A DNA stretch of 64,000 nt from NCBI GenBank assembly GCA_963743525.1, contig CAVUQH010000002.1, forward strand, positions 1 through 64,000, given 5' to 3'. Shown piece by piece: positions 18,130 through 21,889 of the stretch. The notes under the pieces were generated by a model. The model was given only the letters and a program-made list of their open reading frames with translations. It did not search any database and was not told where the DNA came from. The position numbers and the translations under genes were made by a program. Each line of letters begins with the position of its first letter. Positions within the stretch are counted from its first letter, which is position 1. This DNA comes from an uncultured delta proteobacterium (GTDB lineage Bacteria; Myxococcota_A; Polyangia; Haliangiales; Haliangiaceae).

Positions 18130-18180
18130 CGCACGATTTCGGGTCTTGCCCCGGGCGCCCGGTTGGCTAGGATGCGCGAC

Positions 18181-20664
18181 ATGGTGGGGCGAGACTGGTT
18201 GGCGAGCGGCGCGGCCGCGGCGGTGGCGATTGCGGTGTTCGCGCTGGTGCCGGCGGCGCGGGTGCCCGCGCGCCTGGCGGGCGTGATCGGCGGCGACGCG
18301 GTGGCGCCGATCCACCTGAACGGCGGCACGCGCCTCGAGCTGACCGCGCCGGCTGGCGCGACCGTCGATCAGCGGCGCGCGCTGACCAGCGCGCTGCTGC
18401 GCCGCGGCAGGGCCCTGGGCGTCCACGTCTCGGCCGTGCGTTCGGGCGACGATCGCGTCCGGGTCGACGTGCTGGGCGATCGCCCGGTGTCCGAGCTGGT
18501 CGCTGCGCTGGGACGCGAGCACACCTTGTCCATGCGCCGGGTCAACAGCGGCGCCGCGCTGTCGAAGTCGATCTCGGACGCGGTCATCGGCGACCCCGCG
18601 GCAGCGGCGGCGGGCGTCGAAGGGCATCCCGACTACTGGACCTCGAACGCGACCGGACTGGCGCAGCGCGACGACTACCTGTCCGGGCCCGACCGCGGCA
18701 CGCTGAGCTCGTATCTCGCCGGACTGTTCCGCCGCCGCCCCGAGCTGTCGCCGCCGCCCGACCACGAGATTGCCTTCGACTGCAGCAGCACACCGGGCAG
18801 CTGTCGGAGCTACTACCTCGAGCGCAAGACATGGCTGACCGACGCCGACGTGTCGGCGGCCGAGGTGATCTGGGACCAGTACACCAACCGGCCGGAGGTG
18901 CTGGTCACCTTCACTCGCCGCGGCGCGACGGTGTTCGCGGACATGACCGCCGCCAGCCTCGGCAAGAAGATAGCCATCGAGATCGACGGCCAGGTCAACT
19001 CGGCGCCAGTGGTCGAAGGGGTCATCCGCGGCGGTCGTTCGTCGATCACCATGGGTGCCGACGACCCGCAGACGCAGCAGCGCAAAGCCGAGGAGCTCGC
19101 GGCGTCGCTGAGCAGCCCGCCGCTGCCGTTCCCGGTGCGCGTCGCCGGCACCAGCCGCATCACCGCCCGGCCCAACAGCCCGCGGGCGCTGGCGGCGCGC
19201 GGCGTCTTCGCCCTGCTCTGCGGCCTGCTGGCGCTGCTGTTCCTGCGCCTGGCCCGGCGCGCCGGCGCAGACGACGATCCCGAGAGCGTACCCGCGGCGA
19301 CGCTGCGCGGCAGCGGCCGGCTGGCCAGGCTGCCGTGGCGGCAGCTGTCGGTGTCGGCAGCCGGCGTGGTCGTCGTGCAGCTGCTCGCTCGCGTCCCGGT
19401 GCCCGGCATCAATCACGATGCCCTGGCCAATCTGGCCGCCGGCTGGAGCACCGCCAACACCCCCGCGATCAGCGTCTTCTCCCTCGGGCTGATGCCGTTC
19501 TTGACCGCGGCGGTGCTGGTCGAGCTGGTCTGCCTGGCGGTGCCCCGGTTGCGACGTTTGCGCCACGGAGGTCCCCGGGGTCGCGCGCGCATCGCCCGCC
19601 CGGTCGCGCTGGTCACCATCCTCCTGGCGTTCGTCCAGGCGTGGATGGTCGCGCTGTGGTTGGCGTCCCTCGGCCGCGGTCCGTACGCCGCGGCTGAGCT
19701 GCTGCCCGACGCCGGCATGCGCGCGATGCTGGTCATCGCCGCCAGCCTGAGCTGCGGCGTGCTGGTCATGGTCGGCATCGCCGGCTTGATCGATCGCCAC
19801 GGCCTGGGCAACGGCATCTCGGTGATCCTCCTGGCCGGACTGATCGGCGAGGCGCGCGCGATCACCGCGCGCACCAGCCAGCTCGCACCGTCGCCTGCGC
19901 TGCTCTTGTACGCAGCCATCGGCCTGGTGGCCATCGCCCTGCTGACCCGCTGGCTGATGCGGCGCCGCACCTGGTCGGCCGCGCATCCGACGCTGCCGAT
20001 GCCGGCGACCGGCGCCGTACCGCTGTCGGCGGTCTTCTGGCTCCTGTCGCTGGCCGCTCTGCTGTCACCGTTCGTCGCGATGCCGCTGTGGCTGGCGCAC
20101 CTGGTGCCGTCCAGCTTCCACCAGCTGCTGTTGCAGCTGGCGCTGATCGTCGCGACCGGTGCCGGCTTCGCCTGGCTGTTCGCGCGACCGGCCGTCTGGC
20201 TGGCGCCGGCCCGAGCGCTGGGACAGCAGGTCAGCGACGGCGACGCCCGGCGCGCCTTCACCCGCGCCGCGTGCTGGTCGATCGCCTGGTTGCTCGTGGT
20301 CGCCGCCCTCTATTACGCGCTGCGCCGCGAGGCGGCGCCGTTCCTCCTGGGACTGCCGATCCTGCTGCTGGCGGTAGCCATCCTCAGCGACCTCCACGCC
20401 GAGTGGCGGGCCCGCGCGCGGACCCCGGACCTGGTCCCGGTGTGGCCGATCCACCGGGTGGCGCTGGCCCCGATCGTGGCGACGACCCTGCGGGAACGGG
20501 GCATCGAGCACCATCTGCGCGGCCTGCGCCACCGCAGCCTGCTGCACTTCTTCGGCCCGTATGTGCCGATTGTCGTCATGGTTTCGGCGGCCCAGGCCGG
20601 CGAAGTGACGGCCCTGCTGGGGCCCGCTCTATCCCGGCAAGCGCGCGCCGCTGAACGCGGTTAA
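18181..20664 (+). CDS. Fusion of a SecD-like periplasmic (P1) domain, a SecY-like membrane domain and a DUF2007-like C-terminal domain
   Basis: LNGG; RPEVLVTFTRRGATVFADMT...IAIEIDGQVNSAPVVEGVIRGG (SecD head); VPVPGI, ISVFSLGLMPFLTA, IDRHGLGNGISVIL (SecY); TLRERGIEHHL (DUF2007-like). Confidence 0.75.
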   Translation: MVGRDWLASGAAAAVAIAVFALVPAARVPARLAGVIGGDAVAPIHLNGGTRLELTAPAGATVDQRRALTSALLRRGRALGVHVSAVRSGDDRVRVDVLGDRPVSELVAALGREHTLSMRRVNSGAALSKSISDAVIGDPAAAAAGVEGHPDYWTSNATGLAQRDDYLSGPDRGTLSSYLAGLFRRRPELSPPPDHEIAFDCSSTPGSCRSYYLERKTWLTDADVSAAEVIWDQYTNRPEVLVTFTRRGATVFADMTAASLGKKIAIEIDGQVNSAPVVEGVIRGGRSSITMGADDPQTQQRKAEELAASLSSPPLPFPVRVAGTSRITARPNSPRALAARGVFALLCGLLALLFLRLARRAGADDDPESVPAATLRGSGRLARLPWRQLSVSAAGVVVVQLLARVPVPGINHDALANLAAGWSTANTPAISVFSLGLMPFLTAAVLVELVCLAVPRLRRLRHGGPRGRARIARPVALVTILLAFVQAWMVALWLASLGRGPYAAAELLPDAGMRAMLVIAASLSCGVLVMVGIAGLIDRHGLGNGISVILLAGLIGEARAITARTSQLAPSPALLLYAAIGLVAIALLTRWLMRRRTWSAAHPTLPMPATGAVPLSAVFWLLSLAALLSPFVAMPLWLAHLVPSSFHQLLLQLALIVATGAGFAWLFARPAVWLAPARALGQQVSDGDARRAFTRAACWSIAWLLVVAALYYALRREAAPFLLGLPILLLAVAILSDLHAEWRARARTPDLVPVWPIHRVALAPIVATTLRERGIEHHLRGLRHRSLLHFFGPYVPIVVMVSAAQAGEVTALLGPALSRQARAAERG

Positions 20665-20674
20665 ACTGGACGGA

Positions 20675-21889
20675 ATGCTCCGCCGCGCTGCGCTCGCCGC
20701 GCTGGTCGCCGCCTCCCTGTGGGCGTGCAGCCGGCCCATCCCGCACGACGACACGCCGCCCCCTCGCGGCCAGAGCTACGCCGACTATCTGGCCAGCGGC
20801 CAGCCCAAGCCGCCGTCCCGGCCGGCTGACACCAACGACACCGACGAGATGGTCGTCCACGTGATCAACGTCGGCCAGGGCGAGTCGATCCTGCTCGAAT
20901 TCCCGTGCGGCGCCGTGCTGGTCAACACCGGCGGCGAAAAGAACGACCAGTGGGACGGCGTCGCCCACCTGACCGCCTACCTCGACAAGTTCTTCGCCCG
21001 GCGCACCGATCTCGACAAGACCTTCGAGCTGCTGCTGCTCACCCACCCGCACCTCGACCACACCCGCGGGGTCAACGCGATCCTGTCCCGCTACACCGTG
21101 CACAACGTGGTCAACGACGGCATGCACAACGAGTGGCTGGTCCAGGACGGCAAGAAGGTGCCCGACGAGGGCGGCCTCCACCAGATCGCGCTGGAGGCGT
21201 GGGCGCGCAAGCACTCCGACTCGGTCGGCTACGATGCGGTTCGGGTCAACGACATCGGTCCGCGCGGGCTCACCGACGGCGTCATCGATCCGGTCAACGG
21301 CTGCAAGCGATCGATCACCGATCCGCAGATCCGCGCGCTGTGGGGCCAGGAGTTCACCGACCGCGACACCTTCGGCGACAACCCCAACAACCACAGCGTC
21401 GCCCTGCGCGTCAACTTCGGCAAGTCGTCTGTGTTCCTGCCCGGCGACCTCGAGTTCCTGGGCGAGTCCCGGCTGGCCAAGAAGTTCGCCGCCGAGCCGT
21501 CGATCTTCGACGTCAACGTCTACGTCGCCGGCCACCACGGGTCGAAGAACGGCACCAGCAAATACCTGATGGAGGCGATGACCCCCGACCTGGCGGTCAT
21601 CTCCGCCGGCCCGTACGGGCGCACGGCGACCTGGAGCGCGCGCCGTTTCGGCCACCCGCACCGCGACGCCATCAACCACATGACCTCGCGCGAGTACGGC
21701 GTGAAGTGGAACCGACCCGACCCGCTCGACGTCATGGTCGGCGTGCGCGGCGCGTGGAAGGACGAGATCGTCGAGAAGTTCGAGAAGCGCCACATCAGCA
21801 AGGCGGTCTACTGCACCTGCTGGGACGGCGACGTCCAGGTGCACATGAACGCCAACGGCTGGATCCACGTCGAGCACGACGGCAAGTAG
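20675..21889 (+). CDS. ComEC/Rec2-like metallo-beta-lactamase-fold lipoprotein
   Basis: LWAC lipobox, VGQG, THPHLDH, NNHS, PGD, HHGS, FGHPH. Confidence 0.85.
   Translation: MLRRAALAALVAASLWACSRPIPHDDTPPPRGQSYADYLASGQPKPPSRPADTNDTDEMVVHVINVGQGESILLEFPCGAVLVNTGGEKNDQWDGVAHLTAYLDKFFARRTDLDKTFELLLLTHPHLDHTRGVNAILSRYTVHNVVNDGMHNEWLVQDGKKVPDEGGLHQIALEAWARKHSDSVGYDAVRVNDIGPRGLTDGVIDPVNGCKRSITDPQIRALWGQEFTDRDTFGDNPNNHSVALRVNFGKSSVFLPGDLEFLGESRLAKKFAAEPSIFDVNVYVAGHHGSKNGTSKYLMEAMTPDLAVISAGPYGRTATWSARRFGHPHRDAINHMTSREYGVKWNRPDPLDVMVGVRGAWKDEIVEKFEKRHISKAVYCTCWDGDVQVHMNANGWIHVEHDGK

Follow-up and report, generated by a model that had tools for sequence, protein, structure and literature searches.

The window considered here is a stretch of 64,000 nucleotides of contig CAVUQH010000002.1, from an uncultured delta proteobacterium of the family Haliangiaceae, and at 18181..20664 on its forward strand lies a gene in which parts related to SecD and SecY are joined in a single chain. 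Translation gives an open frame of 827 aa with zero internal stops, and domain matches place a SecD-type segment (transmembrane helix TM1, the P1 domain and TM2) first, a ten-helix SecY paralog second and a DUF2007-like cytoplasmic domain last. The original prediction, made from the letters of the sequence, had described one uninterrupted open reading frame (ORF) with the SecY signature segments VPVPGI, SVFSLGLMPFLTA and GLGNGIS, and both the single frame and every one of these segments are found. Hydropathy reveals 12 strong helices, two flanking P1 and 10 afterwards; the helices alternate and the predicted inside loops are basic, which would put P1 outside and the tail inside.

Domains of the fusion protein

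All features of the protein are encoded on the forward strand. Six residues precede TM1 (aa 7-25; 18199..18255), a SecD-type N-terminal anchor by hydropathy that is followed by a match to the SecD LxGG motif. The periplasmic P1 domain comes next (aa 44-330; 18310..19170), with its head at aa 209-316 (PF22599, E 2.5e-18; hhalign to host SecD, E 8.6e-45), and TM2 (aa 337-355; 19189..19245), assigned by hydropathy and by alignment to host SecD, is the final SecD-derived helix. TIGR01129 matches aa 69-354 (74.4 vs 244.4 bits), and the T. thermophilus structures 3AQP/3AQO in the Protein Data Bank match as well. A helix stands at the TM2 position in 114/114 members with P1 at the N-terminus (N-fused members). 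Fusion and SecD/SecDF are thus alike in TM1, the base and head of P1 and TM2, and the fusion P1 also has the lineage-specific insert of host SecD (P0155). Beyond TM2, however, the alignment to host SecD breaks, so that TM3-6 are absent, as is the SecF/P4 half.

According to passages of PMC5974789, P1 of SecDF binds unfolded protein, and an Asp in TM4 of SecD is essential and couples protons to P1 movement. Because the SecD part of the fusion ends after TM2, this Asp is missing, and none of the other proteins compared has the D-A-N motif found at Asp543 of host SecD. The suspicion that the proton-conducting domain of SecD had been lost is thereby borne out, and with TM3-6, the TM4 Asp and SecF/P4 all absent, no proton-driven stroke of P1 is therefore to be expected.

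The SecY paralog comprises TM1-TM10 (aa 385-742; 19333..20406), as placed by profile alignments to host and E. coli SecY. PF00344 matches aa 431-586 and TIGR00967 aa 394-555 (74.6 vs 253.6 bits), and the family profile aligns to residues 14-422 of host SecY (P0154; hhalign probability 99.6) and 19-424 of E. coli SecY (E 6e-46). The C-terminal half, at first taken to be degenerate, is in fact colinear with SecY TM6-TM10, and sequence profile and hydropathy together point to an intact ten-helix SecY fold.

When 145 paralog modules are aligned with E. coli SecY and 20 canonical SecY proteins of Myxococcota, what has been kept can be told from what has been lost. Kept are the SxFxLGxxP segment of TM2b, G81/P84, R113, Q131, GxGNG of TM5, G273/P276, P339 and D415, and the window's protein retains GLGNG, G611/P614, P670 and D737. 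We take the pore ring of E. coli SecY to consist of positions 82, 86, 187, 191, 278 and 408. For I408 this role is confirmed (PMC3164448). Among these presumed pore-ring positions, 82, 86, 191 and 408 stay aliphatic in the paralogs; I187 is replaced by Tyr/Phe in 111/145 (Ile in the window's protein), and I278 by small and variable residues (Ser in the window's protein).

The losses are concentrated in three places. The plug helix TM2a is gone: E. coli positions 60-66 are gapped in 118-144 of the 145 paralogs, the F[ST]GG motif occurs in 1/145 as against 20/20 canonical SecY proteins, and the plug segment P42-G81 has shrunk from 40 residues to a median of 28 (29 in the window's protein). The L6/7 and L8/9 docking loops are deleted across the paralogs, the window's protein included. 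The columns of R255, R256 and R357 are gapped in 141/145, 139/145 and 118/145, the R239-P276 segment has gone from 38 residues to a median of 21, and the [IV]PG[IV]RP (IPGIRP-type) motif is found in 0/145 paralogs as against 20/20. Passages of PMC8082313 state that plug and pore ring seal the resting SecY channel and that L6/7 and L8/9 dock SecA, FtsY and the ribosome; R357 is crucial and the loops are required for SecA and ribosome function, according to parts of PMC2171681 and Table I of PMC2063957.

There are also family-specific gains. Glu448 (E. coli Gln93; 19522..19524), at the cytoplasmic end of TM2b, is acidic and near-invariant (E in 144/145), Arg461 is present in 143/145 paralogs and Arg468 in 145/145, and the C2 loop is basic, in contrast to the acidic loop of housekeeping SecY. 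In a tree, a long branch separates the paralog modules from canonical SecY (FastTree 0.90). Unlike housekeeping SecY, the paralog is fused to P1 and DUF2007, lies outside the spc operon, and is patchily distributed and fast-evolving. Because the plug, the L6/7 and L8/9 loops and the proton-coupling helices of SecD are lost, a routine translocon role is unlikely.

The host genome (8.55 Mb, 97% complete) retains the ordinary components. Its canonical secY lies at G000:C5:62516-63550, between L15 and map/S13-like ORFs, and a secD-secF pair lies at G000:C22:113025-116087, which agrees with the earlier claim that the fusion stands outside the ribosomal operon as a paralog of the housekeeping genes. 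The genome has a single secA and a single secE, and a second secA was not found in it. Accessory Sec systems are defined by a gene cluster. Like SecY2/SecA2 (TIGR02920, NF009082), the fusion is a divergent second SecY besides the housekeeping copy, but it scores only 28-29 bits against cut-offs of 250-353, has neither a secA2 nor conserved accessory or substrate genes nearby, belongs to a Gram-negative host and carries extra fused domains. By the sequence features tested, the fusion works unlike SecYEG or SecDF, and it is not an accessory SecY2.

The DUF2007-like cytoplasmic domain (aa 745-815; 20413..20625) is recognized from matches of PF09413 in relatives and from covariation. PF09413 (DUF2007, "putative prokaryotic signal transducing protein") matches 33 of 51 aligned C-terminal domains of the family at E <= 0.01 and is above cut-off in 4/44 whole family proteins; the assignment made earlier for this domain holds for these relatives but not for the window's protein taken alone, which gives no match. 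The tail is a soluble domain of about 70 residues with a conserved loop, R-x-L-L-x-F-F-G-P-x-x-P, and its invariant residues are R785, L770 and P796. No stand-alone DUF2007 was found in the host genome at E 0.01, and no solved structural relatives of the C-terminal domain were found. What distinguishes the tail from DUF2007 is its family-specific hydrophobic loop, which co-evolves with SecY TM5.

This covariation was measured in 198 modules (183 once near-copies were removed). Ser547 in TM5 (E. coli Ser188; 19819..19821) and His784 in the tail loop (20530-20532) form the top long-range mutual-information pair (z 9.1) and rank first of 325,465 residue-trait pairs (phi 0.88). Both residues occur together in 39 modules, Ser alone in 4, His alone in 1 and neither in 133. 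They change 21 and 19 times on the tree, unlike the pairs ranked just below, which mark clades and change 4-13 times, and in an independent-pairs test on a tree built without the covarying columns, 8.3/10 pairs were concordant and none opposite (median p 0.008). Mutual-information pairs among near-invariant columns were set aside as pseudocount artefacts. Ser547 adjoins position 187 of the presumed pore ring; a suspected identity of E. coli Ser188 as a prl site was not confirmed and plays no part in the argument. The covariation amounts to one strong predicted contact, short of a structure, and from it the tail is therefore predicted to plug the cytoplasmic funnel of SecY; its loop would seem to occupy the space where the SecA two-helix finger, the ribosome or the SecG loop normally act.

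A tail in this position could also be accommodated by a specialised exporter or insertase, that is, a self-contained translocon with narrow substrates and another motor or none, perhaps with a YidC-like half-channel in its better conserved N-half. The tail would then replace the cytoplasmic cover provided by SecG, the loop of which covers the cytoplasmic side of resting SecYEG according to parts of PMC5974789, and P1 would ratchet the emerging chain. All ten helices are kept, as such a function would have it, conservation is highest in TM2b and C2 (0.62 and 0.59, vs 0.32-0.45 for TM6-10), and the repeated fusion to P1 mirrors the holo-translocon. The covalent stopper, however, would occupy the very point where a substrate enters, the docking loops are gone in a host with one secA and one secE, the proton-coupling SecD/SecF helices are lacking, and substrate genes are not clustered with it in the way of accessory Sec. 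We consider this explanation rather unlikely. The original prediction had offered a self-contained translocon or insertase as its first option; docking loops deleted family-wide, the lack of a second secA and the lack of a conserved substrate or partner gene speak against it.

The fusion family and its link to sigma factors

A word-indexed homolog search returned only 2 full-length relatives, and the family was recovered by an exhaustive search. Its matches numbered 6349 representatives at E <= 0.001 and, at the stricter <= 1e-30, 297; the best 150 were analysed. Among the 153 proteins compared, 114 have the order P1-SecY-tail, 16 a permuted order SecY-tail-P1 and 15 SecY-tail without P1 (some possibly truncated), 8 being partial or otherwise arranged; these proportions are biased toward the query. 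A split gene or an assembly artefact is contradicted by the 114 proteins with the same one-chain order, which include a 70% identical ortholog in a genome of the same genus; the contigs of DNA sequencing runs are short fragments, none of which extends across the whole fusion gene. In 16/16 permuted forms one helix separates tail and P1, so that P1 is again predicted to be periplasmic.

The family is large and mostly myxobacterial, as a check of its phyletic distribution shows. The tail profile matches 56/118 genomes of the host's family, a tally that takes in two unpublished genomes (G445 and G446), and 26/401 genomes of the phylum, the host being included in both counts. Relatives within the host's family include loci L081 and L082, which are the same contigs as G012 and G016. 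Further loci come from records labelled Sorangium, Polyangiaceae, Limisphaerales and Gemmatimonadetes, and the Atlas clusters of the family belong mostly to Myxococcota and Acidobacteriota. When 32 loci were clustered, no neighbourhood was conserved beyond the genus, the gene caller having missed genes at a few of the loci with low scores (L045, for example). A scan of 93 neighbouring genes from 28 loci likewise turned up no recurrent partner, substrate or accessory gene.

A decaying duplicate, or a chimeric assembly without function, might be suspected from the dN/dS of the fusion against its same-genus ortholog (0.41), which is above that of neighbouring genes (0.09-0.26), and from five loci in which the module is spread over two frames. 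Yet dN/dS stays below 1 in every segment, the family-specific residues are invariant in 114 one-chain homologs with identities of about 26-70%, and roughly half of the genomes of the host's family carry the tail. The gene is under purifying selection but fast-evolving, and lack of function is a very improbable explanation that is already largely refuted. The two-frame loci themselves (L083, L098, L141, L151 and L155) reflect either assembly errors or pseudogenes.

Several variants were observed in passing. In three genomes the fusion, or its tail, is duplicated in tandem (L031:3076-6578; G412:C120 27330-28768; G454:C87 11698-14383). A zinc-ribbon-like CxxxxC..CxxC segment opens 7/15 P1-less forms (P0118, P0121, P0125, P0129, P0142, P0146 and P0150), the four-cysteine start of P1-less members being seen at loci L084, L094, L099, L136, L139, L141, L150, L154 and L157, and constitutes a second kind of cytoplasmic add-on. 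In one instance only, a P1-less member (L092:3931-5804) adjoins flagellar/type III export genes (PF01311, PF01312).

The first kind of add-on is an N-terminal D-Y-L-W..G...L-E..L motif, found in 5/114 N-fused proteins. The motif-bearing fusions lie at 5/68 loci, many of which are short, and represent 3 independent cases (L082/L132, L125/L130 and L126). At 5/5 of these loci, the stop codon of an upstream sigma-factor gene of the extracytoplasmic function (ECF) type overlaps the start of the fusion gene. A profile of the motif also matches, for 7/10 homologs of the ECF gene that precedes one such fusion, the beginning of the gene immediately downstream, and these downstream genes mostly encode the motif, then one hydrophobic stretch, then an unrelated C-terminal part. 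The other three ECF homologs (L108, L110 and L111) lack a downstream motif, L110 being cut by a contig end. The six best matches of the profile in 121 genomes are ECF-downstream genes, and a second profile, built from the ECF-downstream genes and L082, recovers all five motif-bearing fusions. The proteins downstream of the ECF genes at L102-L107 and L109 open with D-Y-L-W-D..G.P-D-P-E-V..L-E. ECF-like genes near L091, L101 and L083 were left out of the count, their scores against the group profile being only 37-50 bits.

By its position and layout, the D-Y-L-W motif behaves as a group-specific candidate anti-sigma domain. Membrane-bound ECF anti-sigma factors consist of a cytoplasmic anti-sigma domain, one helix and a periplasmic sensor, and the N-terminus of the motif-bearing subclade has the same layout and overlaps an ECF gene; the subclade differs in having, as its sensor part, SecD P1 together with an entire SecY paralog. 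A tree of 47 rows, constructed with the motif left out, places the 8 motif rows in one 17-row branch (98/97), with 4 changes needed, and several motif-less members of that branch start with M-S/N-E-R. This suggests that the association between ECF factors and fusions is old, with losses.

A possible sensor and competing explanations

Our tentative reading, held with slightly less than even confidence, is that the fusion is a pseudo-translocon, in which a plug-less SecY without motor docking, stoppered by its own tail, senses unfolded envelope polypeptides. More generally, it may be, at an equally guarded level, that SecY has been turned inside out into a family of receptors, and that in one lineage these serve an ECF sigma factor as its anti-sigma factor. 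Unfolded envelope polypeptides, a ligand assigned by analogy with SecDF P1, would be captured by the SecD P1 head of the fusion and presented to the open outer vestibule or the lateral gate of the SecY module. Entry of the polypeptide would displace the DUF2007-like tail from the cytoplasmic funnel, and this displacement would be the output signal, for which the proposal names no direct downstream partner of the window's protein. The physical plug, the identity of the ligand, the displacement step and the downstream partner are matters that we infer.

The sensor reading is suggested by those relatives in which an anti-sigma-type domain is present and the gene overlaps that of a sigma factor. 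It is also consistent with the joining of P1 in both orders, always on the predicted periplasmic side and without the proton-coupling helices that power pulling, and with a fusion that is patchy and solitary, fast-evolving yet selected. A sensor built from translocon parts had been the second option of the original prediction, and it gains from the anti-sigma/ECF subclade and from the predicted self-plug; for the window's protein it is a proposal.

Several observations weigh against a sensor. The anti-sigma motif is absent from the window's protein, which falls outside the motif-bearing branch of the full-length tree and is grouped there only in a quick P1-only tree. No ECF sigma gene lies directly upstream of the window's fusion gene, and in the host genome neither that ECF group (at E 1e-30) nor the motif was matched. 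Among the 114 N-fused proteins just five have the motif, and in these P1 alone could sense; no output partner is conserved near the fusion loci in either neighbourhood survey. The Ser547-His784 pair was chosen from the same data that were used to test it; the tail-channel pairs 668-761, 668-789 and 741-780 failed the independent-pairs test, as did a broader residue grouping, S/T versus H/Y/F. In addition, four of the six presumed pore-ring positions are aliphatic and G81/P84, Q131, GNG, G273/P276 and D415 are kept, as in a channel that still opens.

Such a channel might open inward: P1 would capture peptides or misfolded proteins in the periplasm, and SecY, lacking its plug, would pass them to the cytoplasm, for uptake or for retro-translocation and degradation. 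The DUF2007 loop would be the inner gate, and Glu448, Arg461 and Arg468 would possibly take part in proton coupling. The inverted anatomy, an open outer vestibule with an inner stopper, fits this explanation, as do the conserved channel core and the new near-invariant Glu448, and polypeptides can enter canonical SecY from the periplasmic side, as PMC7858069 reports. However, neither the 32 loci nor the 93 neighbours include a conserved protease, ATPase or peptidase, no driving force is identifiable, and the anti-sigma fusions point toward signalling. We regard inward traffic as unlikely.

The origin of P1 bears on a further alternative. A single branch distinct from canonical SecD holds all non-canonical P1 domains, whether N-fused, C-fused or stand-alone (SH-aLRT, an approximate likelihood-ratio support, 99), so that the P1 of the fusion belongs to a duplicated lineage unlike that of SecD/SecDF; repeated, independent recruitment from canonical SecD is unsupported. 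The host genome has its own stand-alone P1 gene, of 315 aa and with a lipoprotein-like signal LLLLVGC (L004:1492-2439 (-), G000:C8 ~447324-448271), and its product falls in the same non-canonical branch.

The fusion could also be imagined as a passive holdase or decoy. Neither transporting nor signalling, it would buffer envelope stress by binding, at its periplasmic face, peptides that are unfolded or translocon-targeting, and the ECF fusions would merely put the protein under stress control. Stand-alone lipoprotein-like P1 genes in the same branch, one of them in the host, would be in keeping with this, as would rapid evolution and the lack of an output partner in most members. It leaves unexplained, on the other hand, the invariant tail residues R785, L770 and P796, the co-evolving plug contact and the cytoplasmic add-ons (anti-sigma motif and zinc ribbon), and we judge it improbable.

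Whichever function applies, the fusion is a new architecture of known parts that falls outside SecY, SecD and SecY2, and its family is real, conserved and apparently undescribed. To our knowledge, the known SecY paralogs (SecY2 and plastid SCY2) still export protein. Database names of the family are automatic only ("SecDF P1 head subdomain-containing protein"). A search of the literature, with subscription journals outside its reach, found no paper on SecY with DUF2007, on SecY-like proteins in Myxococcota, or on ECF or anti-sigma factors with SecD in Myxococcales, and among the papers listed by broader searches none concerned the family. PMC8675477 is silent on the family in the portions covered by the terms searched, and the main text of the ECF re-classification paper (PMC7826278), in the portions available, has no SecY or SecD, while its supplements may already list this ECF group or motif.

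If confirmed, a sensor or inward channel of this kind would be categorically new in function, a first case in which the fold of a translocon serves signalling or inward traffic instead. It would also constitute a natural experiment on gating, revealing what a SecY that has lost its plug and docking loops still requires, and would show what SecD P1 does without proton coupling. The permuted form WP_437586108.1 is encoded by Sorangium sp. So ce1000, which is in culture, so that the family can be tested there.

Promoter-like element and neighbouring gene

A gene for a metallo-beta-lactamase (MBL)-fold, ComEC-like protein, probably a lipoprotein, begins 10 nt past the stop of the fusion (20675..21889, forward strand). 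It adjoins the fusion in the same genus only and is probably outside the fusion's system.

Upstream, the promoter that had been proposed for the fusion gene, TTGCCC-16-TAGGAT, is indeed present as an element (18146..18173, forward strand, 7 nt ahead of the ATG), but its role as a promoter is weakly supported and unproven: it scores 8/12, and a promoter scan of the upstream region called nothing, this element included. In the same-genus genome G001, TTGTTC-16-TACCAT stands 6 nt ahead of the corresponding ATG, the pattern TTG..TAnnAT being kept, and in both genomes there is no Shine-Dalgarno-like stretch between the -10-like element and the ATG (window:18146-18183). Because the same-genus genome keeps a similar element just before its ATG, a leaderless transcript of the fusion gene starting from this element is plausible.

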